From Candidatus Forterrea multitransposorum CG_2015-17_Forterrea_25_41 (GTDB taxonomy: Archaea; Iainarchaeota; Iainarchaeia; Iainarchaeales; CSSED10-239), in NCBI GenBank assembly GCA_009392915.1, contig CP045477.1:416001-480000 (forward strand): 64,000 nt of DNA, read 5' to 3'. Numbering within the stretch: position 1 is the stretch's first letter; the number at the start of each line of letters is the position of its first letter. The notes under the pieces were generated by a model, which saw only the letters and a list, made by a program, of their open reading frames with translations, made no database searches and had not been told where the DNA came from. The translations under genes were made by a program, and so were the position numbers. This document shows, one piece after another, positions 1-22,892 of this stretch.

Positions 1-140
1 GTTTTTTTACTAAATATATGTCTTAATAATCTACTCTTTCCAGAATTATTTCCACCTACAAAAATATTTAGTTTTGATAAACTATTAATAGTATCTGGAT
101 AACCTTCAAAATTTAATTTAATATTTTTAATTAATTCCAT
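1..140 (-). CDS. N-terminal fragment (approx 46 aa, truncated by window start) of an AAA_15/OLD-family-like ATPase. The ATG at 138-140 overlaps the hsdS stop codon.
   Basis: Reverse-strand translation MELIKNIKLNFEGYPDTINSLSKLNIFVGGNNSGKSRLL..., with a Walker A-like GGNNSGKS. The ATG overlaps the TAA of the upstream hsdS by 1 nt. Confidence 0.45.
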   Translation of the reverse strand, partial: MELIKNIKLNFEGYPDTINSLSKLNIFVGGNNSGKSRLLRHIFSKK

Positions 141-1432
141 TAATATTTCACCCTTATTTTTCCAGACATTAATTTAGGTAATAATAAATCTCTTATTTCA
201 GATAATTTCTTATTTTGCCTTTTATTTTCTGAAATTTTAATAAATGTACTTCTGATCATTGAATTATATTTTTTCAATATTTCATTTGATGGATTCAATA
301 TCTGTATTTTCTGAATGTTTTCATTATTAATTGCTTGCATTGTTGTACCATTACATAAGTTATTTTTTATTATTTCAAAATCATCATTTAATACAAAATT
401 CCAAATATAATACAAAGCATTTTCTTTTATGTCTAACCCAGCAAATCCAGTAGATAAAATTAAATTTTCTAATTCCCAAGCGCTATACTTATCAAAATAA
501 GTTATTTTTTTACTATTTTTCATTTTAGCAAACCACACTGTATTCTCTTTAGGTTGCATATTTGCTCTTGATGGTCTTTTTATAAATGTAATTTTAGTAT
601 TATAATTTATTATTTCAGAATTATCTATATCTGCAGTTGCAACATATGTTTTTTCATCAAAGTCTTCTGTACCAACCTTTGTAAAAGACGTTAGATTATT
701 GTCTCCTAAATGCCCAACATCCCATCCTTTAGGTATTTCTTTTTTTAATTCTTTATTATAAACCATTTCTCCTCCACTAGATTTATAAGGTTCTCCTTTT
801 TCATTTGGAAATTCAAAATCAACAAACCATCTTTTAAATAAAGTTTTTCCTATTTCTTCAAGTGTTTGATTCATTTTTCTGTTTAGTTCTATTTTTTCAT
901 CTAAATCAGAAAGGATTTTTGCAATTTTTAACATTTCATTATTATTTTTTGGAACTATAACTAGTAATTTTTTAATATCCCCTAAACTAAGTGTTTTTTG
1001 TGTAGAACCACCAACATTTTTTTCAATTTGATTTAAAATATATTTAGAATTTAAGGCATAATATAAAAAATAACTGTTTATATTCGGGTTAATTATCACC
1101 GTATTTTGCCCTAAACAAAATAATTCTGTTGTATTTACAAAACTTGTAATTCCATATGTTCCAACCCTAGTCATTATGATATCATTTTGCTTTGGGATAT
1201 AATTTTTAGTAAATTCATCATAAATAGATTTAGTAACTTTTAATGTATTTGATAAATCTAAACTACCTGATTTCACATCAGTTACTCTTACCATTGATAT
1301 TCCTTTATTAACATAAATTGGAGTTTTATGACAAGAATCAATAACTATAGATATATCATTTAATGATTTAACGTCCCAATCTTTAGGAATTAATCCAATT
1401 TCTGTTTTTTTAAATTTTATTTTATTAATCAT
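140..1432 (-). CDS. hsdS: Type I restriction-modification specificity subunit HsdS.
   Basis: 430 aa. Two target-recognition halves separated by a conserved central helix (KKLLVIVP...LDEKIELNRKMNQTLEEIGKTLFKRWFVDFEFP) and a C-terminal LLPKLMSGKIRV motif typical of HsdS. Sits in an operon with hsdM. Confidence 0.8.
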   Translation of the reverse strand: MINKIKFKKTEIGLIPKDWDVKSLNDISIVIDSCHKTPIYVNKGISMVRVTDVKSGSLDLSNTLKVTKSIYDEFTKNYIPKQNDIIMTRVGTYGITSFVNTTELFCLGQNTVIINPNINSYFLYYALNSKYILNQIEKNVGGSTQKTLSLGDIKKLLVIVPKNNNEMLKIAKILSDLDEKIELNRKMNQTLEEIGKTLFKRWFVDFEFPNEKGEPYKSSGGEMVYNKELKKEIPKGWDVGHLGDNNLTSFTKVGTEDFDEKTYVATADIDNSEIINYNTKITFIKRPSRANMQPKENTVWFAKMKNSKKITYFDKYSAWELENLILSTGFAGLDIKENALYYIWNFVLNDDFEIIKNNLCNGTTMQAINNENIQKIQILNPSNEILKKYNSMIRSTFIKISENKRQNKKLSEIRDLLLPKLMSGKIRVKY

Positions 1433-2400
1433 AATATTTCCAATTTATGTTCTGAATTAACAATTTCATAAAAATCATTAATATAAGTAATTATGTTTAA
1501 ATATATCGTATTATTTTTTACATCTGATACTTCTATGTGAGAAGTTATTTCAAAAATAGATCCTGTTCTTGTTTCTTCAGGAATATTAATATTCTCAGAA
1601 TACTCTAAAATTCTAAAATTTTTAATTTTAACTTTATCTTCTCCAATTTCAATTTGATTTAATTTAGACATATAATCATTAATATAACTTTTAAAATCAT
1701 ATGAATTGCTAAATTCCTCAATTGAATTAATAAAATTTTCTTCAGGATAAATATTATCTAATTTAATAAATAAACCATCACCTATCGGTTCTATAACTAT
1801 ATCTTTATTAAATAACTCTTTAAATTCTAATGCACAATTTTTATTAAATCCTAAATCCCTTGTAATTAAAAATACATTTTCATAATCATCAAAATCTTGA
1901 GATAATATTGTCTCCCATATCAAGGCATCTTTAAAACCAGAATCAGATTTTTTATCTTTATTAAAAGGAGACTTTTTTTCTAATGCTCTTATTTTTAGAT
2001 CATTAAATTTTTGAAAAATTAAATCATCAGAAATTTTTAAAATTTTTATTTTGTTTTCAAAAATATAATTTCCAATTTTATCCAAAATAAAATCTTTTAT
2101 ATTAAAATCATCTGAAATTTTAAATAAGTTAATTTTCGAATCAATATAAGCATATCTTTTTTTAATGTCACCTAATTTTCTGCTATCGGATTTAAAACAA
2201 TCTCTTCTTTGTTTTTCTAATTCAAATAAAGTTATATCTGTTATTGATAATTTAATATATTCAAACAAATTTTTTTTAAAAATATAATCATACAATTTTT
2301 TAAAATCATTATTAAATGTAAAAGTATGATAATAAATATTATCACTACTATTTTCTTTTAACACATTTGTATCAAAAATAATTATTGTTTTTGGCATCAT
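1429..2400 (-). CDS. PIN-like nuclease-domain protein (N-terminal approx 190 aa) with a C-terminal domain of unknown function.
   Basis: N-terminal IIIFDTNVL, plus downstream acidic residues including FLITRD (the hhTxD-type PIN motif). 4-nt overlap with both neighbouring genes. Confidence 0.45.
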   Translation of the reverse strand: MMPKTIIIFDTNVLKENSSDNIYYHTFTFNNDFKKLYDYIFKKNLFEYIKLSITDITLFELEKQRRDCFKSDSRKLGDIKKRYAYIDSKINLFKISDDFNIKDFILDKIGNYIFENKIKILKISDDLIFQKFNDLKIRALEKKSPFNKDKKSDSGFKDALIWETILSQDFDDYENVFLITRDLGFNKNCALEFKELFNKDIVIEPIGDGLFIKLDNIYPEENFINSIEEFSNSYDFKSYINDYMSKLNQIEIGEDKVKIKNFRILEYSENINIPEETRTGSIFEITSHIEVSDVKNNTIYLNIITYINDFYEIVNSEHKLEIL

Positions 2401-2879
2401 TTAAAATCAAATATTTTCTTTTTATTAGAATAATTAATTATTATTTTATATTTTAAATTGTTTTCTAAATTCATCTCTTTTTCAAAATTTTCTTTTGAAC
2501 TATAATTTAATTTAACTAATATTTTATCAGTGTGATTTGGTTGTAATAGAAATGGAAATATAACTGGTTTATATGATGGTAGAGGATAACTTGTTTTTAA
2601 ACCAACACCCAAACTTACAGATTCAGATACATTCAAATAAACTGAATTAGGCATAAATTTAGTTTTATTATGATATAATTCCATCTTCTTAATTGTAGTT
2701 GGTCTTTGACCAACATTACTTAAATAAAAATAAATCCAAATTTCATTTTCATCCATCTTAACTTCTAAAACTTCTTTTTCAACATATAATTTAGGTTTAT
2801 TTTTACTTTCTATATAAAAAGATAATAATATACCTAATATTGCAACTATTAAACCCAATATACTAATTATATATTCCAT
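2397..2879 (-). CDS. Small single-pass membrane protein with a beta-rich C-terminal domain, hypothetical.
   Basis: N-terminal hydrophobic helix ISILGLIVAILGILLSFYI. Overlapping start and stop with its neighbours. Confidence 0.4.
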   Translation of the reverse strand: MEYIISILGLIVAILGILLSFYIESKNKPKLYVEKEVLEVKMDENEIWIYFYLSNVGQRPTTIKKMELYHNKTKFMPNSVYLNVSESVSLGVGLKTSYPLPSYKPVIFPFLLQPNHTDKILVKLNYSSKENFEKEMNLENNLKYKIIINYSNKKKIFDFK

Positions 2880-3370
2880 TAGTTATCATTTTTCTTTTTA
2901 AACTTTCTAATTAATGCTAATAATAGTTCTTGTTTAAAAAATATTATACTTAGTAATTCTATACCAAAAGCAATATTTAAAACAACAGATAATTTAAAAT
3001 TATTAATTATTGTTTTGTAAATACTTATTTGACTATTTTCTATATTTTCAAATTTTTGATTTAAATTAGTTATTTGATACTGTATAATATTATAATCATT
3101 TTTTATTTCTTCAAAATCTTTTTTAGTTATATTTTCTGTTATTAATTTGTTATAGTCAGACTGACAATTTTTTAGTTGTGAACTAATCTGTATTATATTG
3201 TTATTTAATGTAATTTTATTTAATTCACAATTATTTAATTTATCTACAATAGGTTTACATTTATCCTCTGATAATAAACCAAACAATCCTTGTATAATTG
3301 GAATAAATATCATCACAATTATAAACACAACTAAAATACCTCCAATTATTGCAAATGGATTATCCGCCAT
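2879..3370 (-). CDS. Small membrane protein with two TM segments flanking a Cys-containing coiled-coil region, hypothetical.
   Basis: N-terminal TM helix (FAIIGGILVVFIIVMIFIPII), a Q/N/K-rich heptad-like middle region, and a C-terminal hydrophobic segment. Start lies 2 nt after the hsdM stop. Confidence 0.4.
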   Translation of the reverse strand: MADNPFAIIGGILVVFIIVMIFIPIIQGLFGLLSEDKCKPIVDKLNNCELNKITLNNNIIQISSQLKNCQSDYNKLITENITKKDFEEIKNDYNIIQYQITNLNQKFENIENSQISIYKTIINNFKLSVVLNIAFGIELLSIIFFKQELLLALIRKFKKKNDN

Positions 3371-3372
3371 AT

Positions 3373-4890
3373 CTATTTCACCTCAAAGCCGATTCCTTTA
3401 AGATTTTTCTTAATCTCTTCTTCTAATTTCTTAGATTCTTTAAATTGTTCGCTTAATTCTTTTGTAAGGCGAGTCATCTTTTCTTGAAAAACTTCAGGAT
3501 CTTCCTCTTCTTCCTTAAAACCAACGTAACGGCCAGGTGTAAGAATAAAGTCTTGCTTTTCAATCTCTTCAAGAGAGGCTGATTTACAAAAAGAAAGCTC
3601 ATCTTGATAACTTTTTTTGTTTATCGGGTCTTTTGACCTCCAAAGAGAAACAGTTTCTGAAATTTTTGTAAAATCTTCTTCAGTGAGTTCTCTTTGTCTT
3701 CTGTTAATCATTTGTCCAAGATTTCTAGCATCAATAAAAAGAGTTTCTCCTTTTCTATGTGCAGGTTTATTTCTATTAACAAACCAAAGACAAGCAGGAA
3801 TCATTGTATTATAAAATAATTGAGATGGAAGAGCAATAATACACTCTACAAGATCATCTTTAAGTATATTTTTTCTAATTTCTCCTTCTCCAGAAGTATT
3901 AGAACTTAAAGAACCGTTTGAAAGAACAAAACCAGCAATTCCTTTAGATCCTAAATGATAAATAAAATGTTGAACCCATGCAAAATTAGCGTTCCCTGCA
4001 GGAGGAACTCCATATTTCCAACGAGCATCCTCTCTTAATAGATCTCCAGACCAGTCTGAATCATTAAAAGGAGGATTTGCAATTATAAAATCAGCTCTTA
4101 AGTCTTTATGTTCATCATTTAGAAAACTACCTTCATTATTCCAAACAACTTTATTATCAATACCTCTTATTGCAAGATTCATTTTACATAATTTCCAAGT
4201 TGTTTGATTAGATTCTTGACCATAAATAGATATTTGACCTATTTTTCCACCATGTTTTTCAACAAACTCTTCAGATTGAACAAACATTCCTCCAGAACCA
4301 CAACAAGGGTCAAATATTCTTCCTTTAAAAGGTTGTATTATTTCAACTAATAATTTAACAATAGATTTAGGAGTATAGAATTGGCCTCCTTTTTTTCCTT
4401 CAGCAGAAGCAAATTGTCCTAAGAAATATTCATATACTCTTCCTAAGATATCTTTACTATTATCTTTAGAATTAAAAGAAATTGTTCCTATAAGATCAAT
4501 TAACGCTCCTAATTTTGTTTTATCTAAAGATGGTTTTGAATAATCTTTTGGAAGTATTCCTTTAAGTGTTGGATTTTCTTTTTCAATTAAATCCATTGAA
4601 TCATCAATAATTCTTCCAATTTCTATATTTTTTGCATTATCTTGAAGATATTCCCATCTTGCTTTTTTTGGAACATAAAATACTCTTTGAGAGACATATT
4701 CATCTTTATCTTCTGGGTCTGCATATTCTTCTTCTTTTAGTTTAGTATATAGTTCTTCAAAAGAATCAGATATATATTTTAAAAATATTAAACCTAAAAC
4801 TACATGTTTATATTCTGCAGCATCCATATTACTTCTTAATTTATCTGCTGCTTTCCAAAGCTTTTCTTCAAATCCTAAATCTTGAGTCAT
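3373..4890 (-). CDS. hsdM: Type I restriction-modification N6-adenine DNA methyltransferase subunit HsdM.
   Basis: 505 aa with an AdoMet motif ([10 protein letters not shown]) and the catalytic NPPF ([12 protein letters not shown]). N-terminal HsdM_N-like region present. Confidence 0.9.
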
Positions 4891-4960
4891 AATTAATCTC
4901 TTCTTTTATATAAATATAATATACATCTAAACACTTTTAAAGGTATTATGTATTAAAAAA

Positions 4961-5347
4961 CTATTCAAATCTAATCTCTTTTCTATCATCTTCTATTGCT
5001 TGTTTTATTTTATTATATTCTTCTTCACTTAACTCTATTATATTACTATAAGTATAATCTTCCTTTGCAAGCTTAAATCTTTCTTGTAAAGAACGTGCAC
5101 CAAGACCTTTATTAGATAAAAGTAATAAAGAAAGTTTAATCTGATAAGGATATGGTTTTTTCCAAGAAGTAAATTCATTGTCTACTTTTTTAATAACTTT
5201 AAATATTCCAAAAATTACTCCTTGACCATAATATACAATAATATCATCTAAATTAACTAAATCTCTTTCATTTTTGTCTATAAAACCACAATATTCTTTT
5301 GTTTTAACAAAAGATTCCCAAGAATGGTTAATTAAGTAATATTTCAT
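4961..5347 (-). CDS. EVE-like (PUA-fold) domain protein.
   Basis: 128 aa. Pattern MKYYLINHSWESF ... DDIIVYYGQGVIFGIFKVIK ... PYQIKLSLL resembles the EVE consensus (YWLxK..P..F / GDLxFFYHS..IVGIAEV). Lies 70 bp upstream of hsdM on the same strand. Confidence 0.4.
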   Translation of the reverse strand: MKYYLINHSWESFVKTKEYCGFIDKNERDLVNLDDIIVYYGQGVIFGIFKVIKKVDNEFTSWKKPYPYQIKLSLLLLSNKGLGARSLQERFKLAKEDYTYSNIIELSEEEYNKIKQAIEDDRKEIRFE

Positions 5348-5349
5348 TT

Positions 5350-6729
5350 TTAATCATATCTAAATCCATATTTTTCAGTTAATTTTTGCCATTCATCATG
5401 ATATTTTTTCCATTCATTATATTCAAATTCATCTAATACCTGGCCAGAACCATAACTATCTAATTTATTTTGCAAAAATTTTAATCTCAAATTATCATCA
5501 TATTCTTCTTTAACACTTTCAAAAGATTTACCTTCAGAAACAACATAAATATTTGGCTTTGAAATTAATTTACCTACTCCAATATAATCTCCATCACTAT
5601 CTGTAATAATACTTGGAGTTGTTGTTTCTATAAAACAATAACCAGAATTATTATAAGAATATTTAATTGGGCATTTTAATCCTATTGAAGCATGCTGCTC
5701 TAATTCAAAACTAAAAATTGCAACACCATAACCTAACTCTTTTAACATTAATGCAAGTAAATTTGTTTTATCCCCACAAACTCCTGTTTGATCATATAAT
5801 GTTTCATAAGCATATCTATTACTATAATTATGATTAAAAGAATCCCAATCATAAGGCATTGTTTGAACTAAACTGATTGCAATCCTTGCTTGATCATCAG
5901 TATTATTTGTTATTTTTTTAATTTCATTAATTAATGGTAGAATATATCTTTCTTGATCTTCAGTATTAACATACATTAATGACATATATTCAGAAGTAGG
6001 AGGAGATTCATAAGAAGAATAAGTTACTGTTCGAGGTAAATTTGACAAATAATAATTAAACCCATTATAGACAGTGTAATTAAAACTATTAGGTACACCT
6101 CTTAGAGTATAATTTAACTTAATTGGCTTAGGTTCAGTTTGCAATTTATGTAAACACTTCCCATTAATATAAATTTCATCTATATCACATAAACATTTTT
6201 CAGGAAACTCAATTAAATTACCTTTCTGACAAAAATAAGGCTTAATATTTGAACAATTATTATATAAAGTACCATCTTCACACCTATTAATAACAAAATT
6301 AAATAATAAATTCATAATTATATAAATTAGAATAATAATAATAACAATATTTCTTAATTGTTTAAATCTAATTTTTTTAAGTAAATGAATAACTAAAGTT
6401 AAAATTAAACTATTTAGTAAAATTATTATAAAAAAGTTAAAACTAACCTTTAATAATAGATAATTAAAACTTAATAAAATAATAACATAAACTAAAGTCC
6501 ATATAAATAAATAAAAATTAAATCTAAATTTATTTTTATAAATTATAACAGTTATTATGCGTGAAAATAAACTAAATATGATTGCTATAAATACTAATTT
6601 AGTGGTATTATTAACAATATTTAATAAATTTAAAAATAAAGAAGATAAATAATATAATAGACTATAAATTAATATCCAAAATAGAAACCAGTAAGATTTA
6701 TAAAATCTAAAAATATTATTATTTCTCAT
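5350..6729 (-). CDS. Membrane-anchored protein with a Cys-rich ectodomain and a transglutaminase-like cysteine protease core.
   Basis: First ~140 aa are multi-TM, followed by a Cys-rich segment. The C-terminus carries GVCGDKTNLLALMLKELGYGVAIF...EQHASIGL...GYCFIETT, which resembles a transglutaminase-like C/H/D triad. Confidence 0.4.
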   Translation of the reverse strand: MRNNNIFRFYKSYWFLFWILIYSLLYYLSSLFLNLLNIVNNTTKLVFIAIIFSLFSRIITVIIYKNKFRFNFYLFIWTLVYVIILLSFNYLLLKVSFNFFIIILLNSLILTLVIHLLKKIRFKQLRNIVIIIILIYIIMNLLFNFVINRCEDGTLYNNCSNIKPYFCQKGNLIEFPEKCLCDIDEIYINGKCLHKLQTEPKPIKLNYTLRGVPNSFNYTVYNGFNYYLSNLPRTVTYSSYESPPTSEYMSLMYVNTEDQERYILPLINEIKKITNNTDDQARIAISLVQTMPYDWDSFNHNYSNRYAYETLYDQTGVCGDKTNLLALMLKELGYGVAIFSFELEQHASIGLKCPIKYSYNNSGYCFIETTTPSIITDSDGDYIGVGKLISKPNIYVVSEGKSFESVKEEYDDNLRLKFLQNKLDSYGSGQVLDEFEYNEWKKYHDEWQKLTEKYGFRYD

Positions 6730-6746
6730 TTTATCACATTAATATT

Positions 6747-7028
6747 TCAATGTCTTTTTTTAATTGATCTTTTAGAAATATTAGAACTTCTATATCTTAC
6801 AGGTTTACTTTTTCTATAAGAATCTTTTAAAACAGAATCACTTTCATTTTTTAAATCATGAATAGTTGGTTCTTTATAACCTAACTGCTTTAAAGCAGAA
6901 TCAAATATCTTTGTAAAGCTTAAGTTATTCTCTTGTACAAATCTTTCTTGACTTTTTGTAATTCTCATATTTATTCTTATATTTCTTCTTTCTGGAGAAG
7001 TATCTCTTTTTACATCTTCTATATTCAT
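6747..7028 (-). CDS. Small ribbon-helix-helix-like DNA-binding protein (start taken at the internal Met, MNIEDVKRD...).
   Basis: A beta-strand (IRINMRITKSQ) followed by two helices. Basic C-terminal tail. Confidence 0.3.
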   Translation of the reverse strand: MNIEDVKRDTSPERRNIRINMRITKSQERFVQENNLSFTKIFDSALKQLGYKEPTIHDLKNESDSVLKDSYRKSKPVRYRSSNISKRSIKKRH

Positions 7029-7164
7029 ATAAATCAATCCCTTAAATACACTTTTCCCAATCAAGAGCATAGTGTATATACAACTTTGACACAACGAGTT
7101 TATAAATAGATCGATTACACTAAAATATAATAAAAAGAGAAGATTAAAAAATAAATCTTATCTA

Positions 7165-7890
7165 CTAAACTTTAATCTCTATTAAAACAGGATTATGGTC
7201 ACTAAATCTTCTAATTTCATCATTTTCAAGAACTTTGCAAGAAATAATGTTTTTAAAAATAGGTTTATTCATAAAAAAGTAATCATTTTGCCACTTAACT
7301 TTACTTTTTTTATGTCTTAAGGTCTGTACAGGATATTCTTTATCAGTTAAATCAAAAGCATCAAAAAAATTAAAATCTTTTAATCTATCAAAAAAAATCT
7401 TATGAGAGTTATTATATTTATATATTAAATCAAATTGAATACTTGCATTTAAATCTCCCCCCAATATAATATTTCTTTTACCATTAAGTTTACCATAAAA
7501 CAAAGGAGATAAATCAGATAACATGCTATGTAGATTAGGAATTGAATAACCATCTGTCATAAGACCATATAATGATATAAAAGTAAGTTTTTTATTATTT
7601 ATAACAGTATTTGCTATTGTTAAAGATCCATTAAATTTAGTATTTATTGTTTCCTGAGAAAGATTGTATTTTTTACTATAAATTCCAGATCCCCAATTAC
7701 GATTTTTATCAATTTTATTCCAAATAAGATTTGAATCTTTTTTAATATGTTCAGGAGGATTTGATTCTTGAAATAAATATATATCTGCATCAATATTATT
7801 TAAAAAATAATCCCAAATATCTTTATTTAGCTTTTTATTTTTCCAATAATCCATATTCCAAGTAACTATTTTAATATTCATTCTTATCAA
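7165..7890 (-). CDS. Endonuclease/exonuclease/phosphatase (EEP) family protein.
   Basis: N-terminal KIVTWNMDYW (TWN motif) and C-terminal RFSDHNPV (SDH motif), both characteristic of the EEP fold. Confidence 0.7.
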   Translation of the reverse strand: MIRMNIKIVTWNMDYWKNKKLNKDIWDYFLNNIDADIYLFQESNPPEHIKKDSNLIWNKIDKNRNWGSGIYSKKYNLSQETINTKFNGSLTIANTVINNKKLTFISLYGLMTDGYSIPNLHSMLSDLSPLFYGKLNGKRNIILGGDLNASIQFDLIYKYNNSHKIFFDRLKDFNFFDAFDLTDKEYPVQTLRHKKSKVKWQNDYFFMNKPIFKNIISCKVLENDEIRRFSDHNPVLIEIKV

Positions 7891-7898
7891 TTTTTATT

Positions 7899-8738
7899 TT
7901 AAATAACCTTCTTAATATTCTTTTCCAAGTAAACAATAAACTTATCTTTATTCTTTCCTTTTAACTTTTCCCAAGAATTATATACTTTTCTTATTTTATC
8001 TTCTAAAATAATATCTTCTTTATCATTATATCTGTATCTTGCATATTTTTCTTTATTATAACCTAACTTATATGCTAAAATATTTTCAATAGTAGATGTA
8101 AAAGTTTCACTAAATGACTGCTTTTTTATTCCACCATATTTATCTAAAATATATTTTTCAATTCTATTATATATTTCATTATTTGAATTAATTACATGAA
8201 TAAGTTCATGAATTAATAAAATATATATTCTATTTTTAGTAAATTTTCTATAATCAACATCATCTCCTATAGATATATGAAAAGATAAATTTGTTGCAGA
8301 ACCTCCAAAACCAGGCCTTGTATTATTTGCAACAAAGAAAGTAGAGCTTACTTTTGTAGAATTATAAATAACATCTAAATAAGGTTTAATTATTTTAAGT
8401 TCTTTCTCTTTAAAATTAGTTATAAATGTATTTAGAAAATCTTCTGATTTTTTATTAATAACAATAGGAAATAATTTTTTTAAAACAATTAGATGTTTTT
8501 TTTCAATATTACTTAATTTTTTTTTATTAACAATATTATCTATTAAATTTTTGTAATTAAGCCTATTTGTAGAAATAATACTATAATCTTTATTAATCAA
8601 AAAAATTAAATCTACCATTTCTTTTAATTGATTTTTATTAGCAAAAGTATAAACTTTATCAATATTACAATATGCTTTACAAGCAAGTCTTAAATCTTTT
8701 GAAGGTTTTATTAAGTTTAGTTTAATATCAACACTCAT
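7899..8738 (-). CDS. Hypothetical protein with a HExxH motif (possible zincin-like).
   Basis: LLIHELIHV motif. Start lies 8 nt upstream of the EEP gene. Confidence 0.3.
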   Translation of the reverse strand: MSVDIKLNLIKPSKDLRLACKAYCNIDKVYTFANKNQLKEMVDLIFLINKDYSIISTNRLNYKNLIDNIVNKKKLSNIEKKHLIVLKKLFPIVINKKSEDFLNTFITNFKEKELKIIKPYLDVIYNSTKVSSTFFVANNTRPGFGGSATNLSFHISIGDDVDYRKFTKNRIYILLIHELIHVINSNNEIYNRIEKYILDKYGGIKKQSFSETFTSTIENILAYKLGYNKEKYARYRYNDKEDIILEDKIRKVYNSWEKLKGKNKDKFIVYLEKNIKKVI

Positions 8739-8805
8739 AAAGATATCTATTAAATAAAGGTTTTTTAAAAGTTATGTTTAATAAGGAGCTATCATAAACT
8801 AAAAA

Positions 8806-9147
8806 TTAAACATTTACCCAAATAACACAACCTTTCTTATGAACGTAAGGTTTTGGAGAAGAATATCTTTTGATATCAGACAATACCCAAGCATGAGGAT
8901 TATTATATTTTAAATCTAAAACATCTTCTTTCTTTATTTGATGCTTTTCTAAGTTTTTAAATAAAATATCTTTGTTAATTTTTATTGAATCTTTAATAGT
9001 ACATTCACCATATACTTTTTTGCTGCCACTCATAATAAGAGCAATTCTTTCACCAATCTTTGAAGTATTAAAGTTTCTTATCTCCCAAGTCTTTTTTCCT
9101 TCTAAGATTAAATTTAACCATTTTTCTTTAATTATAAGGCCTTTCAT
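8806..9147 (-). CDS. ASCH domain (PUA-like) protein.
   Basis: 113 aa. KEKWLNLILEGKKTWEIR ... GERIALIMSG ... GECTIKD matches the ASCH pattern (K..w...i.sG.KtvE.R...gd.i.l......vvg.a.i). Confidence 0.6.
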   Translation of the reverse strand: MKGLIIKEKWLNLILEGKKTWEIRNFNTSKIGERIALIMSGSKKVYGECTIKDSIKINKDILFKNLEKHQIKKEDVLDLKYNNPHAWVLSDIKRYSSPKPYVHKKGCVIWVNV

Positions 9148-9244
9148 AAAAGATATCTATATTTCAAAAGGCTTTTAAACTCTTTTATGTAGTAATTAAA
9201 CTATTTATTAAAAAACAAAAATATATCTTAATTAAGATGATAAA

Positions 9245-10603
9245 TTATTTATCAATAACTTTCCAATATCCTGCTTTGTCTGAACCTATTCTTTTTATCT
9301 TCTTTTGCTCTTTTAATATTTTTAAATATCTTTCAATAGTCTTTGTACTTAAATTAAATTCTGTTGCCATTTGAGCATAAGTAACTTTATTATTAGCTTT
9401 AATTAATTTTAATATTTTTACACCGACATTTACACCGACATTTACACCGACATTTACACCGACATTTACAGTGTCTTTTACAGGTGCATTTACACCGACA
9501 TTCATAGTAGATTCTATTATTTTTTGTCTTTTAAAAACAATACAAAACCAATCAGTATCTATATTAAACTTAACACTTGGAAAAAGTTTTTTTATTCTTT
9601 TAATACCAGAACCAATCTTTTCAATAAACTCTGTTCTTTGTAAACAACCTGCTAAAATAGGATTTCTTAATATACTTACTTTTCCAAAATCTTTTGGACT
9701 AAAAAGAAGTTTTCCTGGATTTAATATTTCAACTCTATCTTCATACACTTCTACCAATATTCTTCCTTGAACAAAATAATCTCTATGAATCATGGCATTT
9801 AGTACTGCTTCCCTTAAAGCAGCCTCTGGTATTTCAGGGGTTTCAACTCTTCTTAAATTAATAATATCAGCCCGTGTTTTTGTATTTCTTAGGATAAATA
9901 ACACAGCATTTTCAAAATTTGATAAAAAGTCAGATTCAAATACTTTTTTATCAAGCATAACAGCCTTAGTATCTCCTTGGTATAAAACACAACTAATATC
10001 TGCATTTAAAAAGAATTTAGTAATTCTTTTTGAAAATAATAATGCACAGGCATTATTTGGAATATCATTTGTTAAAAGATTTAAATTTTTTAAAATATGC
10101 TCTTTTGATAGAGTTGTTGAAAATTTTGCTTTTTTTCTATATTTAAGAAATTTAGTATTATCTATATCTTTAAAATTAAATGAAGAAGTTTGTTTTTCAA
10201 AAGAAATTTTATTTTCGTTTTGTAAAAAATCAATAATTTCATTTCTATCTAGCTTTTGAGAGTTAGCACCTTGCCTTACATAAAAAGAACCACCTACTAA
10301 ATATGGTTTATCTTTTCCTAAAGGAACATATATTATACCAATATTATCTATGATTTCAAAATTAACAACTAAAGAGGGATCTATGTTTCTTGCAATTGTT
10401 TGTACTTCAGAGGAAAATCTATTGTTTATAGAAATACCTTTTATTTCTCCTTTATCTGTAACTCCTAAAAGAATTTTACCTCCATCTGAGTTTGCAAAAG
10501 CACAAATTGATTTTCCAATTTCTTTATGGTTTAAACTTTCTTTAAACTCAAGAGTATATCCTTCTCCTGTTTTTATAAGATTAAGTAAGTTCTTTTTATC
10601 CAT
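9245..10603 (-). CDS. AlbA_2 (Schlafen-like, formerly divergent AAA) + HATPase_c_4 + C-terminal wHTH putative transcriptional regulator.
   Basis: N-terminal LLNLIKTGEGYTLEFKESL...ICAFANSDGGKILLGV, a mid EAVLNAMIHRDY motif, and a C-terminal wHTH (TIERYLKILKEQKKIKRIG). Confidence 0.7.
   Translation of the reverse strand: MDKKNLLNLIKTGEGYTLEFKESLNHKEIGKSICAFANSDGGKILLGVTDKGEIKGISINNRFSSEVQTIARNIDPSLVVNFEIIDNIGIIYVPLGKDKPYLVGGSFYVRQGANSQKLDRNEIIDFLQNENKISFEKQTSSFNFKDIDNTKFLKYRKKAKFSTTLSKEHILKNLNLLTNDIPNNACALLFSKRITKFFLNADISCVLYQGDTKAVMLDKKVFESDFLSNFENAVLFILRNTKTRADIINLRRVETPEIPEAALREAVLNAMIHRDYFVQGRILVEVYEDRVEILNPGKLLFSPKDFGKVSILRNPILAGCLQRTEFIEKIGSGIKRIKKLFPSVKFNIDTDWFCIVFKRQKIIESTMNVGVNAPVKDTVNVGVNVGVNVGVNVGVKILKLIKANNKVTYAQMATEFNLSTKTIERYLKILKEQKKIKRIGSDKAGYWKVIDK
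9421..9504. repeat. 12-bp tandem repeat (CACCGACATTTA): four perfect plus three degenerate copies, in frame inside the regulator CDS (encodes the (VNVG)n linker).
   Basis: Read directly in the sequence: caccgacattta x4, followed by cagtgtctttta, caggtgcattta and caccgacattca. Confidence 0.85.
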
Positions 10604-10937
10604 TTATATCATTCTTTTTAAAATTATACTTTTCTTTTAATTATTAAAAATTATGTTTTTTTGGAAGGTAATCTCTTTTATAATATATATTAGGACCTTT
10701 AAACTACATATATATTTTGAAAGGGAGAGGCCTCGTGGCCGAGAAAAGAGCTTTATAATTAAAAGTTACTAAAATGCGCAAAATAAAATTAAAAAAAGAA
10801 TATATTTAACAAAAAAAAGTAAAATTATTTTATTTAAATAAAACATAAAGTAAAATATGTTTAAATATGTTTTGCAAAGAAGATATATATTATATATAAA
10901 AGAATATATAACAAAAATTAAAAAAATATGAAAACTT

Positions 10938-13307
10938 ATGGCCTTAGAAAACTGGAACAAAGATTTAGAAAAAGAAATCATTGAATTTGAAATTAAAAAT
11001 AAACTATTTAAGTTTAGAGAAGCAGAAGAAAAAGAAGTCTTTAGTATAGACACACCTCCTCCATACTTAAACAGACCAATACATATAGGACAAGCAACAA
11101 CTTATGCAATCATGGACATGATTGCAAGATATAGAAGAAAGAAAAACTATAATGTTATTTTTCCTCTAGGACTTGACAGAAACGGACTTCCAATAGAGAT
11201 GGAAGCTGAAAAAAAATATAACATGAATATTTTAACAACTCCAAGAGAAGAATATGTTGATAAATGTAGAGAAATTTTAATTGAATACTCTGGAGAAACA
11301 CAAAGTAGTTTTAGAAAAATAGGAATAAGCTTTAATTCCTATGAAGTAAATGAAGAAATAGGTTCAGTATATGAAACAGATTCTCCAAAATACAGACAAC
11401 TAACACAAAAAACATTTTTATCACTTTATAAAAAAGGACTAATCTATGAAGATGAAAAAGTTGTAAACTATTGTCCAGGCTGTAAGACAACAATTGCAGA
11501 TTCTGAAATTGATTATAAAGAAACAGAATCTTCATTTAATACAATTCTTTTCACAGTTAAAGAGACTGGAGAAAAAATACCAATAGCAACCACAAGACCA
11601 GAACTTATGTGCAGTATTGGTATGGTTATCTTTAACCCAGAAGATGAAAGATGGAAAAACTTAGATGGAAAAACAGCAGTAACTCCTTTATTTAACCTAG
11701 AAGTTCCAATAAAAGCACACACTCTTGCAAAACAAGACAAAGGAACTGGACTTGTTATGATGTGTTCTGCAGGTGATTATTCAGATATTAGATTTTTTAG
11801 AGAACATGGTATTAAACCAATAATCTCAATTAACATAGACGGAACAATGAACAGTAATGCTAAAGAGTTTGAAGGATTAAGAGTTAAGAAAGCAAGAGCA
11901 CAAATAATTGAAACTTTAAAAGAAAAAGGCCTTGTAACTGAAGAAAAGAAAATACAACATAAGGTTCCTATCTGTGAAAGAAGTAAAGATGAAGTTGAGT
12001 TTATTGCTCAAAGTGAATATTATTTAAAACAACTTGATTTTTTAGAAGATGTTAAAAAAATAGGAAATTCAATGAATTTTACAAATCCTGCAAGTAAAAA
12101 AATATTTGATGATTGGCTTAACACAGTTTCAACTGATTGGCCAATTTCAAGAAGAAGATATTATGCAACTGAAGTTCCTTTATGGTATTGTAAAGACTGT
12201 GGAGAAGTTATCTTAGGATCTGAAGATAAATATCAACAACCATGGAAAGAACTTCCAGAAACAAAAACTTGTCCTAAATGTTCTTCTGAGAACATAGAAG
12301 GAGATAAAAGAGTTTTAGATACTTGGTTTGATTCTTCAAACACTCCTCTTTATATACATCATTTTGGAAGTGATTTTTTTAATAAACATCCAGTATGTTC
12401 TCTAAGACCACAAGGTAAAGAGATTGTTAGAACCTGGCTTTATTATACAGTTTTAAAAGCTTATTTAATGAATGGTGGAGTTATCTTTAAAGATGTATAT
12501 ATCCATCAACATATCTTAGATGGAAAAGGATTTAAAATGTCAAAATCTAAAGGAAACATTATAGATCCTCAAAAAATCTTAGATAGTTATGGTGCTGAAA
12601 GTTTTAGATTATGGGCTGTAACTGAAGGTAATTTAGATCAAAAAGATTTTATGTGTTCTGAACAAAATATTAAAGCTGAACAAAAAACATTAAATAAACT
12701 TTGGAATGTTTCAAAGTTTATAACTCAGTTTAAAAAGAATGATTCTGTTGACACTAAGTTTACAGAACTTGATTTAACTTTAAGAAAAGAAATAAATGAG
12801 CTTGTAAAGCTTGCTGATAGAGATTATAATAGATATAATTTCCATATACCTATAGTTAAAGCAAAATATTTCTTAAACAATACTCTTTCTTCAAACTATT
12901 TAGAACTTGTTAAAAGTAGATGTTATAATGGAGAAGGAAAGTTTAAAGAGGAAGAAAAGAATGGTGCTATTGAGACTTTAAGATATGCTCTTGAGAAATT
13001 ACTATATATTCTTTATCCAGTAATACCTTTTACAACTAATATTATTGTTAAAGAAATATATGGAAAAGATATTAATGAAATTTATTTCCCTGAAGCTGAA
13101 GAAATTACAAGTAAGTTTACAATTGAAGATATTGAAACCTTAAACAACAGTATTTGGAAATATAAGAAAAATAATAATATTTCTCTAAAAGATTCTGTTG
13201 AAAAAGTTACTTTACCTTTAAAGTATGAGATTATAAAGGATGATATAAAGGTAACTCATAATATTATAAACCTAGAGTTTAAAGAAGGAGAAGAAATTAT
13301 TATTTAA
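10938..13307 (+). CDS. Class Ia aminoacyl-tRNA synthetase, most consistent with valyl-tRNA synthetase.
   Basis: 789 aa. PPPYLNRPIHIGQA (HIGH-region variant), KMSKSKGNIIDP at ~residue 533, DWPISRR, CP1-like insert with two C-x-x-C knuckles. HIGH-to-KMSKS spacing matches ValRS better than Leu/IleRS. Confidence 0.55.
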   Translation: MALENWNKDLEKEIIEFEIKNKLFKFREAEEKEVFSIDTPPPYLNRPIHIGQATTYAIMDMIARYRRKKNYNVIFPLGLDRNGLPIEMEAEKKYNMNILTTPREEYVDKCREILIEYSGETQSSFRKIGISFNSYEVNEEIGSVYETDSPKYRQLTQKTFLSLYKKGLIYEDEKVVNYCPGCKTTIADSEIDYKETESSFNTILFTVKETGEKIPIATTRPELMCSIGMVIFNPEDERWKNLDGKTAVTPLFNLEVPIKAHTLAKQDKGTGLVMMCSAGDYSDIRFFREHGIKPIISINIDGTMNSNAKEFEGLRVKKARAQIIETLKEKGLVTEEKKIQHKVPICERSKDEVEFIAQSEYYLKQLDFLEDVKKIGNSMNFTNPASKKIFDDWLNTVSTDWPISRRRYYATEVPLWYCKDCGEVILGSEDKYQQPWKELPETKTCPKCSSENIEGDKRVLDTWFDSSNTPLYIHHFGSDFFNKHPVCSLRPQGKEIVRTWLYYTVLKAYLMNGGVIFKDVYIHQHILDGKGFKMSKSKGNIIDPQKILDSYGAESFRLWAVTEGNLDQKDFMCSEQNIKAEQKTLNKLWNVSKFITQFKKNDSVDTKFTELDLTLRKEINELVKLADRDYNRYNFHIPIVKAKYFLNNTLSSNYLELVKSRCYNGEGKFKEEEKNGAIETLRYALEKLLYILYPVIPFTTNIIVKEIYGKDINEIYFPEAEEITSKFTIEDIETLNNSIWKYKKNNNISLKDSVEKVTLPLKYEIIKDDIKVTHNIINLEFKEGEEIII

Positions 13308-19175: not shown

Positions 19176-19768
19176 TATTGTCTAATCTTATCAATATTAA
19201 GCTCCATAGTTACCTTATGAACCTCTTCTGTTAATTCCATATCTTTTAAAAGATATTTTTCAATAGAGGCATAGTCTTTCTTATGACAAAGCTCTGCAAC
19301 CATAGATCCATCAATATCATCTATTAAAGAAACACCAATAGCTTCTCCAAACTCTTTTAAGGTTCCTCTGCTTTTACCATATCTAAAACAAGTAATATAA
19401 TCTCTTAAGTCAAGTATTTCTTTTAAAGAAAAATGTTGTATCTTTACTCTATTAATAAAGCTTCTTGTAACTAGAAAAGAAATATCAAAACTTTTAATAT
19501 TAAAACCAACTATTCTAAAGACAGGATATTTTGTTTTAAAATCTTTAAAGTAGTTCCAGAACTTTTCTAAAAGTTCTTTTTCATTCTCTCCAATTAAAAT
19601 AACTGAATCTTTATCTTTTTCTTTAAGACCAATAGCTATAACTTTTGAATCAACTGGGTTAATTAGCTTTTGTCTTTCCTCTTCCTCTTTTTCAAAATAA
19701 CCATCAAAGGTAACAGGACAGGTTTCAATATCTAAATATAAGTAGTTCATATAGATATATGGTAGCAA
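19172..19768 (-). CDS. DnaQ/DEDD-like 3'-5' exonuclease (PolB-exo related, RNase H-like fold).
   Basis: YLDIETCP (Exo I-like) and IVGFNIKSFDISFLVTR (Exo II-like). Confidence 0.5.
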   Translation of the reverse strand: MLPYIYMNYLYLDIETCPVTFDGYFEKEEEERQKLINPVDSKVIAIGLKEKDKDSVILIGENEKELLEKFWNYFKDFKTKYPVFRIVGFNIKSFDISFLVTRSFINRVKIQHFSLKEILDLRDYITCFRYGKSRGTLKEFGEAIGVSLIDDIDGSMVAELCHKKDYASIEKYLLKDMELTEEVHKVTMELNIDKIRQY

Positions 19769-19815
19769 AAATATATATCTTTATCTAAAGAGGGTATCTG
19801 GCCGAAGAAAGCTAT

Positions 19816-20352
19816 TTACACTTCTAAAAAATAAAAACAAAGATAATTTTCTTTTTCTTTTTTTCTCTTTACAAACTTAAAATTATTCTTTAAAATATTT
19901 ATTTTACTAAAAATATTCTTAGGGTTTACAGTAATTAATATCTTTTTACAACCTTTCTTCTTTAATATTTCAATTCTTTTCTTTATAAAAAAGTCCTGTA
20001 TTCCTTGTCCTCTATATTTAACATCTACAGCAGTTCCAAAAAGAAAAGCAGATTTTAACCCTTCTTTTTTTGAAATATTATATTTTTCAAAATCTTTTTT
20101 TACAGGAAAAAGATATCCACACCAAGAAATAATCTTATCTTTATCTAAAAGAAGTAAAAGTTTTCCTTTTTTTAATTTTCTTTCAAAATTTTCTTTACTA
20201 TGTAAAGGATAAAAATCTATAGTTGTTGTTTTTGCTATTCTTTTATCAAATAAACAAAGTGAAGGAATATCTTTTTTATTTGCAAACCTAAGTTTATATT
20301 TTTTTGAAATCATAATATCATAAATTACATGTATTTTAAATAATATATACAA
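19816..20352 (-). CDS. GNAT family N-acetyltransferase.
   Basis: GTAVDVKYRGQGIQDFFIKKRIE resembles the GNAT motif A (R/Q-x-x-G-x-G/A). Confidence 0.5.
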   Translation of the reverse strand: MYILFKIHVIYDIMISKKYKLRFANKKDIPSLCLFDKRIAKTTTIDFYPLHSKENFERKLKKGKLLLLLDKDKIISWCGYLFPVKKDFEKYNISKKEGLKSAFLFGTAVDVKYRGQGIQDFFIKKRIEILKKKGCKKILITVNPKNIFSKINILKNNFKFVKRKKEKENYLCFYFLEV

Positions 20353-20490
20353 AAGCTATATTTTTAAACAAATCTATTTAAATAAATATATATGAAGTAA
20401 CTACTTTATAATTTATAAAAAAAGTTTTCTTTATTTATATTTTTCTTTTTAAGAGAAGAAGACTTTAAAAAAATACAAAAAAACATATTT

Positions 20491-22710: not shown

Positions 22711-22892
22711 AATAAGTAAATAAAGAGAAAAGCTTTTAAAGACAAAGAAAGTGGCAATTATTTAATTTTGTCCAAGAAATATAGAAATTACCTTTATAGA
22801 GAAAAATACATAAAGTTTATATATATTATGTTTATACTATATAAATATATTATATATATGAAAACTTATAAACAAACGAGGTAGACTTAAAA

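Follow-up and report, generated by a model that had tools for sequence, protein, structure and literature searches.

What does a perfect, GC-rich 12-nucleotide (nt) repeat do inside the coding sequence of an archaeal Schlafen protein, and is it kept for the peptide that it encodes or for its nucleotides? The question is raised by a locus of Candidatus Forterrea multitransposorum CG_2015-17_Forterrea_25_41 (GenBank assembly GCA_009392915.1), of which we analysed 64,000 nt of contig CP045477.1 (forward-strand positions 416,001 to 480,000). This whole stretch is called the window, and coordinates refer to it unless another locus is named. The repeat lies in a minus-strand gene whose product carries a Schlafen nuclease-like domain, a GHKL ATPase-like domain and a C-terminal winged helix-turn-helix (wHTH) domain. 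Our analysis suggests that it is probably an array of tandem copies, prone to slippage, of a 12-nt unit that is conserved as nucleic acid, located in the tether-coding sequence of a defence-island Schlafen protein. The array consists of the following parts.

9417-9470, in the minus-strand open reading frame (ORF): perfect 12-nt tandem repeat of 4.5 units (54 nt)
9417-9502: array as extended by Tandem Repeats Finder (TRF), 7.2 copies, 83% matches, score 116
9422 to 9469, minus strand: four perfect units GTAAATGTCGGT, encoding VNVG four times; the copy-number-variable part
9505-9470, minus strand: three degenerate units ATGAATGTCGGT, GTAAATGCACCT and GTAAAAGACACT, encoding MNVG, VNAP and VKDT

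The reading frame of the ORF (9245-10603, minus strand) is kept through the array, and GTAAAA directly after the last GTAAATGTCGGT unit leads into the wHTH coding sequence. A preliminary description of this DNA had reported an in-frame 12-bp repeat with four perfect and three degenerate units, richer in GC than its surroundings; the sequence and TRF agree with the first statement in every detail, and the GC content (41.7% in the repeat, 26% in the gene and 24.5% in the window) agrees with the second. Among the degenerate units, AAAGACACTGTA is also present in KDTV-type arrays of other archaea. The TRF score is the highest of the 64-kb window among the matches listed, and the window contains no other perfect repeat with a period above 6 and at least three copies. 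The exact GTAAATGTCGGT-type 12-mer is confined to the array; when up to two mismatches are allowed, six matches occur in the window against 1.4 expected, five of them inside the array. An antisense ORF (9381-9767, plus strand), which reads (FTPT)n across the array, was dismissed as a by-product of the repeat and is unsupported as a gene.

Comparison with syntenic contigs of the same species from other samples reveals that the array gains or loses whole units at a rate far above that of point mutation, and always in frame. The window has four VNVG units (452 aa), two JGI metagenomes retrieved by a flank-pattern search have three (448 aa; L086 and L087), and four further loci have two (444 aa; L001 and L002, P0001; L004 and L005, P0121). 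The two-unit allele is present in ERZ27293389, ERZ27293386, ERZ27252304 and ERZ27252280, the three-unit allele in Ga0334884 and Ga0334898. L004 can be aligned to the window without a mismatch through 20,603 nt, interrupted only by a 24-nt gap at position 9470. For L005 the alignment is equally free of mismatches through 13.3 kb, and its only gap is again 24 nt long and lies in the array. Likewise, L087 (6.5 kb) and L086 (2.5 kb) differ from L001 and L002 by a single 12-nt gap in the array, with 0 mismatches. Each unit change is thus quicker than one substitution in up to 20 kb. The two haplotype backgrounds are about 3-5% divergent from each other, so that at least two independent copy-number events must have occurred. 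Variation of this kind is not restricted to one protein, as five of ten homologue clusters at 90% identity differ in the number of whole units. The preliminary description had proposed that copy number would alter linker length without a frameshift and had pointed to related genomes as a place to look. Both expectations are borne out: the two-, three- and four-unit alleles are all in frame, and length varies among strains with 0 mismatches over 2.5-20.6 kb.

It could be argued that these differences are assembly artefacts, produced by collapse or expansion of a short tandem repeat, as every allele comes from metagenome assemblies. We consider this extremely unlikely, because the contig names (k141_) imply an assembly k of 141, which exceeds the length of the whole array (up to 84 nt), and because independent samples yield the same alleles. 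In addition, the differences are exact multiples of 12 nt, and similar variation is seen in five other protein clusters.

To what extent is the array a property of the family? Our homologue set (n = 183) combines database proteins with genes from 80 GTDB species representatives of archaea and bacteria. An internal repeat is present directly before the wHTH, 50-80 aa from the C terminus, in 136 of the 183, with a peptide period of 4 aa in 92 proteins, 8 aa in 22 and 11 aa in 19; the repeat score of the window protein is 13, and the 99th percentile of shuffled sequences is 4. In every case helix 1 of the wHTH marks the end of the array, and this helix begins at about aa 390 in our structural model. 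The repeated peptides are highly diverse (VNVG, VKDT, VNDT, NAPV, VGSK, LGEK, SEKS, EKTV, TTQE, TPQA, FPEK, KYPQ and others). Where repeat positions within a gene have the same amino acid, the codon is identical as well in 525 of 556 cases, whereas codon usage predicts 264, and this homogenisation of the DNA indicates concerted evolution by slippage.

An exhaustive search with the wHTH alone yielded 3669 representatives, and in the best 150 of these a repeat lies just upstream of 101 of 229 wHTH modules; for 92 of the 101 its period is 4, 8 or 12 aa. Some proteins contain up to 9-11 wHTH modules, many with their own preceding array. A group from this search (P0123-P0131; 270-1180 aa) has 4-11 tandem copies of this wHTH type, some behind signal-peptide-like N termini; the modules follow a helicase-like domain in P0127 and a GHKL-like N terminus in P0130, and the inter-module linkers of the group are conserved 'EGDQPDD'-type peptides rather than 4-aa repeats.

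Analysis of synonymous positions indicates that the nucleotide sequence of the unit is constrained by something other than the protein code. We compared amino-acid-identical positions in 26 pairs among 26 loci with N-terminal parts of no more than 60% identity. Codons agree at 95 of 104 positions of the unit (0.91), whereas codon usage predicts 0.39 and the adjacent wHTH and the N-terminal part give 0.40 and 0.42, respectively. Along the cassette formed by array and wHTH, synonymous conservation peaks exactly at the array and falls at its edges. Identical units recur across very distant hosts. TCGGAGAAAAGT is nucleotide-identical in a Pacearchaeote, Methanococcoides, Methanosarcina and Iainarchaeum; GAGAAAACTGTG is common to two archaea and an Omnitrophota bacterium; ACTACCCAAGAA to Desulfobacteria, Saccharibacteria and a Nanobdellati archaeon; and GTTGGTAGTAAGTTGGTAGAAAAG to Nanohaloarchaea, Pacearchaeota, Mesoaciditoga and ANME-1. 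The window's own unit is found again, as GTCGGNGTAAAT, in Nanohaloarchaea, Patescibacteria, Aminicenantes and a viral contig of 54% GC; GTCGG-GTAAAT occurs in a Nanohaloarchaeon (GTAAATGCCGGT), in a Patescibacterium (GGTAAAAATGTC) and in an Aminicenantes genome and a metagenome contig (GTCGGGGTAAAT). The genes that share identical units differ in GC content. The occurrence of a GC-rich repeat in a 25% GC genome is explained by conservation of the unit nucleotides across phyla, regardless of host GC.

The viral contig in question (L090, IMG/VR UViG_3300020172_005639, 54% GC) carries at 7017-7268 an 83-aa ORF with four perfect GTAAATGTCGGT units, nucleotide-identical to those of the window. This ORF consists of a GHKL-end-like part, the array and then unrelated sequence without a wHTH, and appears to be a gene remnant. 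In two related viral contigs of about 60% GC (L092, 7709-7732; L093, 3181-3204) the SEKS-type unit TTCGGAGAAAAG occurs two to three times in an apparently intergenic position, adjoining a large-terminase-like gene and preceded by an AT-rich stretch; this array could be either chance or a phage-borne copy of the element. The viral contigs gave only a handful of matches in all, the rest being unrelated coding or low-complexity sequence, and these are too few to support the idea that phages carry the target.

The period of the array provides a second line of evidence. Among 82 loci the DNA period is 12 nt in 56, 24 nt in 7, 11 nt in 8, 33 nt in 3 and 13, 14, 23, 25 or 36 nt in 5 (13 or 14 nt in 2 of them), and 3 loci have none; the 33-nt period corresponds to three 11-nt subunits. 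Arrays with an 11-nt period are translated through all three frames, so that AAATCGGACAC in four copies yields KSDTNRTQIGH, AAATCCGAAGC yields KSEANPKQIRS and AAAGTACCAGA yields KVPEKYQKSTR. The 11-nt unit is a 12-nt unit lacking one A, as can be seen from AAAGTTGGGAG and AAAAGTTGGGAG. Six of the family's '11-aa' or '10-aa' repeat peptides have exactly one periodic DNA solution each, of 11 or 10 nt, and one imperfect 33-nt class has none; among 20,000 random peptides not a single one had a periodic solution. Cyclic alignment of 48 distinct 12-mers gives one consensus, roughly SSAGWAAANKWC, with an information content of 8.27 bits, compared with 4.85, 5.46 and 6.52 bits for three null sets (maximum 6.82). 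With this consensus as the reference, one frame is used by 31 units, a second by 16 and the third by a single unit. Because members of the same unit family that have an 11-nt period, in a subset of relatives, are read in all three frames, the peptide of the disordered segment is a tolerated passenger, and what is constrained is a nucleic-acid repeat with a period of 10-13 nt. A shifted reading is also seen in one bacterial metagenome-assembled genome (L038, JAOZNZ010000452.1), in which an array of AAAACTGTGGAG, normally KTVE, is read as KLWR; only 5 further residues precede the end of the ORF, and the wHTH resumes in another frame about 107 nt downstream, which may represent a frameshifted allele or a sequencing error.

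These data bear directly on a rival explanation, namely that the array is an ordinary low-complexity linker that slips neutrally, any flexible peptide being tolerated and approximate length alone being selected. The predicted disorder of the linker, the extreme diversity of the peptide motifs, which share no chemistry, and the existence of homologues without a repeat are all compatible with such a linker. However, it would not account for 0.91 same-codon identity in the units against 0.40 in their flanks across phyla, for a 10-13-nt period that is kept whatever the frame, or for the presence of the repeat at the same site in about 75% of homologues. The codon, 11-nt array and periodic-solution data contradict the neutral linker and largely refute it, and we regard it as highly improbable.

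How the array is inherited became clear from an orthologous, syntenic locus (L003; GCA_015657875.1, NPID01000316.1) encoding P0122, which falls in the same 90% cluster as P0001. The DNA of this locus is 97.3% identical to the window up to nt 9524 (aa 360). Beyond this point it has MGSK/VGSK units and a different wHTH, and similarity returns only with the final 56 nt of the gene and the sequence beyond it. This comparison delimits the exchanged segment, and pairs of proteins with almost identical N-terminal parts reveal further recent swaps.

9248 to 9523, minus strand: swappable cassette of array and wHTH, aa 361-452, from the comparison with L003
Window and P0122: N-terminal part 96% identical, wHTH 39%
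P0074 and P0105: N-terminal part 98% identical, wHTH 27%
P0089 and P0120: N-terminal part 96% identical, wHTH 34%
P0067 and P0083: N-terminal part 94% identical, wHTH 38%

Additional swaps are present inside the 90%-identity clusters. Family-wide, the identities of N-terminal parts and of wHTHs show almost no correlation (Spearman 0.16), and wHTH identity is below 40% in 634 of 1103 pairs whose N-terminal parts are at least 60% identical. Array motifs follow the wHTH, with similar motifs in 38% of pairs within wHTH clusters as against 1.3% of pairs between them (distant backbones only). These alignments show the array to be the 5' part of a portable cassette of array and wHTH that is exchanged en bloc between near-identical backbones. 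In L003 a KilA-N gene (11466-12263) is inserted between the Schlafen gene and the neighbouring ASCH gene, exactly at the 3' edge of the replaced segment of this VGSK-type cassette strain.

Extra or decayed cassettes of array and wHTH are found just past the stop codon in about 9 of 79 loci, remnants being recognizable in L039, L022, L026, L031, L040, L048 and L081. One of them is L039 (Methanosarcina hadiensis, CP136241), in which the gene lies between hsdR and hsdS. At 4366-4878, in the 510 nt that follow the stop codon, it has three further 12-nt arrays, of GTGGGGTGAAAA/GTTGGGAGAAAA types and a second GTTCGGAGAAAA array, together with an LGEK-type wHTH, complete but with an internal stop, and the 6 initial codons of a SEKS-type wHTH. 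The region reads as a stack of displaced cassettes. No silent cassettes were found downstream of the gene in the window, and no recombinase was seen in the neighbourhoods of the loci.

Such stacks invite the explanation that the arrays are recombination sites, either att-like or homology handles for the capture, stacking and exchange of cassettes, and that conservation maintains exchangeability. The swaps between near-identical backbones, the proteins with up to 9-11 wHTH modules, many with an array of their own, and the remnants right after the stop codon would all fit, as would L039, where the second SEKS array and six wHTH codons lie beyond two LGEK-type cassettes as if an insertion had split the array. 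However, in the recent swaps divergence begins upstream of the array, at the GHKL end (nt 9524 of the window), so that the array travels inside the cassette and is not the crossover point. Moreover, the units are specific to the wHTH type, whereas a site shared by a recombinase would be uniform, and no linked recombinase is seen at the locus. We therefore regard a recombination-site role as unlikely.

What kind of protein contains the array? Its domains and motifs, as predicted from sequence and structure, are arranged as follows.

9245 to 10603, minus strand: whole gene, 452 aa, with a Schlafen-GHKL ('Schlatpase') body, the repeat tether and the wHTH
10250 to 10564, minus strand: SLFN_AlbA_2 nuclease-like domain (PF04326), aa 14-118, Pfam E 8.1e-21
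10541-10564, minus strand: Ex4ExK motif with E14, E19 and K21 (GEGYTLEFK)
9587 to 9763, minus strand: GHKL ATPase-like domain HATPase_c_4 (PF13749), aa 281-339, Pfam E 2.3e-14
9440 to 9511, minus strand: predicted disordered tether, aa 365-388 (AlphaFold2)
9248 to 9418, minus strand: C-terminal wHTH, aa 396-452, with HTH_11, HTH_24 and HTH_DeoR matches (aa 396-439)

Among 98 homologues E14 and K21 are invariant and E19 is conserved in at least 90%, and in the GHKL region N269, H273 and Y276 are invariant in the family alignment. The AlphaFold2 model, built from the 98-sequence alignment, has a mean predicted local distance difference test (pLDDT) score of 89.5. In the model the wHTH has helices at 390-403, 409-416 and 420-432 and a beta hairpin at 436-449. 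Because residues 365-388 have a pLDDT below 50, and are the sole segment to do so, the repeat is predicted to encode a disordered tether between the Schlafen/GHKL body and the wHTH. Foldseek matches the AlbA_2 part to the N-domains of SLFN13, 11, 12, 14 and 5 (E about 1e-4), the GHKL part to the CA domains of histidine kinases and to PDK, and the C-terminal part to small wHTH domains; PADLOC gives a match of aa 26-308 to a profile of prokaryotic Argonaute (pAgo). The Pfam order and the low pLDDT support the placement, in the preliminary description, of a (VNVG)n linker between HATPase_c_4 and the wHTH. Its name for the gene, a regulator, corresponds to an older family label, and 'Schlafen-GHKL-wHTH defence-island protein' is more accurate. 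By their names, the closest homologues of the gene product indicate a DPANN-type archaeon. A scan for promoters and terminators around the gene gave no more sites than shuffled sequence, and no internal terminator was found in it.

If the nucleotides of the array are what is conserved, what might they be recognized by? The units may be cognate sites, in DNA or less likely in RNA, of the wHTH whose coding sequence follows immediately, because the units are sequence-specific, diversify with wHTH type, have a period of 10-13 nt, which is near a helical turn, and work in both bacteria and archaea. As with iterons, direct repeats near the helical-turn period lie beside the coding sequence of a DNA-binding domain, and their nucleotides are conserved independently of coding. 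A cis element and its trans factor would then travel together in one cassette, and slippage would alter the number of sites and the length of the tether simultaneously. Such changes could adjust autoregulation or the tethering of the nuclease in cis, as well as the way in which the nuclease is coupled to the sensor domain; by analogy with Schlafen-pAgo, slippage may tune the control that the sensor domain exerts on nuclease assembly. In its full form this proposal is that the array is an intragenic iteron-like operator of its own wHTH, within a self-contained mobile cis/trans cassette, that the nuclease is tethered or autoregulated at its own gene, that slippage retunes it and that 11-nt slippage puts the sensor domain out of frame. 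We offer the full proposal tentatively, as a possibility somewhat short of an even chance.

Several observations weigh against our interpretation, some against the array as a conserved nucleic-acid element and others against its recognition by the wHTH. That the units are the wHTH's own sites is something we infer. Unit identity is 11.0 of 12 positions at a wHTH identity of at least 0.6 against a baseline of 6.1 of 12, and co-inheritance in the cassette would explain this equally well. Outside the genes, extra copies of the unit in promoters and flanks do not exceed chance, whether in the 64-kb window or in the regions that flank 60 related loci, and a classical promoter-operator role is therefore unsupported. 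A spacing of 12 bp is not exactly one helical turn. In addition, single-linkage clustering with a threshold of at least 9 identical positions of 12 places 40 of the 48 units in one cluster, and the common consensus may largely reflect common descent. Closely similar units share their reading frame in 64 of 68 pairs; the suggestion that near-identical units of one wHTH cluster are often read in different frames was rejected with 4 of 68 pairs only, and the argument for frame-independence therefore rests on the 11-nt arrays and the family-wide consensus. The array is missing from a minority of homologues (3 of the 82 loci, and for example the Methanococcus maripaludis protein P0095), and is therefore not indispensable. 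Lastly, the copy-number alleles were taken from metagenome assemblies, not from reads.

The unit might instead act at the level of RNA, for example by providing a binding platform on the mRNA of the protein, by being the target of the Schlafen RNase or by making translation pause between domains. The conservation that we measured is strand-agnostic, many units have GGAG followed by a run of A, which resembles a Shine-Dalgarno sequence, and some homologues are named 'RNA-binding domain-containing protein' by NCBI. However, many unit types (ACTACCCAAGAA and ACCCCCCAAGCT among them) have neither a Shine-Dalgarno-like sequence nor pairing potential, so that no such core is common to the family, and a search of Rfam at E values up to 1 across 9000-10800 gave no match. 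A 10-13-nt period has no obvious meaning in RNA, and pausing codons would differ between hosts of 25% and 53% GC. An RNA hairpin, suggested by GUCGGU, which is self-complementary with G-U pairs, was dropped as most other unit types cannot pair. We consider action at the RNA level very unlikely, and wHTH sites in DNA are the reading that we prefer for the units.

The genomic setting of the gene was read through L004, which was used as a proxy for annotation as it has 0 mismatches to the window apart from the 24-nt indel in the array. The annotation of L004 within 10 kb of the Schlafen gene includes ASCH, EEP-family, HsdM, PIN_12, HsdS and AAA_15 proteins. The corresponding genes of the window occupy 140-9147, in this order from the Schlafen gene.

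8806-9147, minus strand: ASCH gene, beginning 97 nt from the Schlafen stop codon
Next, minus strand: gene for a 279-aa protein
7165-7890, minus strand: EEP-family gene
3373-4890, minus strand: HsdM gene
Next, minus strand: two small ORFs
1429-2400, minus strand: PIN_12 gene
140-1432, minus strand: HsdS gene, followed by AAA_15

By gene content the island looks like a type I restriction-modification (R-M) system with inserted genes, and the Schlafen gene heads this defence-type island. The P0001-type strains (L001 and L002) have, about 8 kb downstream at 19447-20934, a second Schlafen-GHKL gene adjoining a Bro-N gene; its 495-aa product ends in Fic-like_C instead of a wHTH, and this paralogue is absent from the window. 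Elsewhere in the window, another notable tandem repeat (25010-25081, 30-nt period, 2.4 copies, TRF score 95) lies inside an ORF at 22872-25397 on the plus strand.

Prokaryotic Schlafens have only recently been established as antiviral tRNases, and about a fifth of them belong to the Schlafen-GHKL-HTH class. This class now gains a testable handle, a linker-coding DNA unit that is conserved in organisms ranging from Patescibacteria to Methanosarcina, accompanies the HTH in exchanges and has a hypermutable copy number. Should these units prove to be the HTH's own sites, each cassette would be a ready-made protein-DNA recognition pair, and coding sequence would have a new way to double as a cis element. 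Otherwise, the synonymous conservation and the three-frame read-through of the 11-nt arrays still need explaining. For annotation, the peptide repeats (VNVG, SEKS, TPQV, KSDANPTQIRR etc.) in thousands of 'RecG-like/putative DNA-binding' proteins are translations of one DNA-repeat family.

How does the locus compare with known systems? By sequence-level criteria the gene product belongs to the prokaryotic Schlafen-GHKL-HTH class. It has been reported that the catalytic motif of Schlafen tRNases is Ex4(E/D)xK and that 'HisKinase-HTH' fusions account for 19.2% of prokaryotic Schlafens (PMC13056530); the experiments of that study covered four architectures, the HTH class not among them, and no defence was seen with the HisKinase fusions that they included. 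AlbA_2 together with PF13749 has been described as the 'Schlatpase' supradomain, with ATP-driven tetramerisation and a sensor attached after the GHKL domain (bioRxiv 10.64898/2026.05.29.728809). The window protein shares with this class, as described in both reports, the order PF04326, PF13749, HTH, the Ex4ExK residues E14, E19 and K21, a defence-island setting (type I R-M, PIN, ASCH) and a sensor-type domain after the GHKL domain. In contrast to our findings, tandem repeats are not mentioned in PMC13056530 or bioRxiv 10.64898/2026.05.29.728809, as judged by a term search, and experiments with this architecture are absent from both. A description of these repeats was not found in the searchable literature either, and the array as a family-wide feature is apparently undescribed. 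The only solved relative, DIP2311 of Corynebacterium diphtheriae (PDB 3LMM), is uncharacterised and matches over all domains (phmmer E 1.5e-6, Foldseek E 7e-22) with 16-18% identity to the window protein.

Phase-variable genes of Haemophilus and Neisseria and the staphylococcal SD-repeat proteins are simple-sequence contingency loci or in-frame variable-number tandem repeats. The array resembles them in being a perfect short tandem repeat that changes its number of units while the rest of the genome stays identical, in a manner typical of slipped-strand mispairing. It differs in that contingency loci switch on and off by frameshift, whereas the 12-nt unit keeps every allele in frame and never turns the gene off; a frameshift is possible only in the 11-nt arrays of relatives. 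Two further differences are that different phyla of bacteria and archaea have kept the sequence of the unit and that the array goes with one particular type of downstream domain.

In the RepA_N initiators of pAD1/pSK41-type plasmid replicons, the repeats of the origin lie in the central variable part of rep. Iterons bind RepA_N proteins (PMC7145576). By analogy, the array would be a set of direct repeats in the variable-linker coding part of a gene for a DNA-binding protein, with a DNA function coexisting with coding. However, our locus is chromosomal and syntenic with no replicon, its DNA-binding domain is a C-terminal wHTH and not a RepA_N N-domain, its units are 10-13 nt long and their binding by the wHTH is putative.

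Cassette-based variation is known from pilE/pilS, vlsE and the type I hsdS shufflons. With these the locus shares a constant backbone and a C-terminal specificity module that is replaced en bloc, and some relatives have silent cassettes downstream. The window, unlike these systems, has neither silent cassettes nor a linked recombinase, and the exchange of cassettes has more the look of replacement between alleles or by horizontal transfer than of a programmed switch. The locus thus combines features of known kinds, namely a hypervariable in-frame repeat, a swappable sensor cassette and a coding sequence that doubles as a nucleic-acid element.

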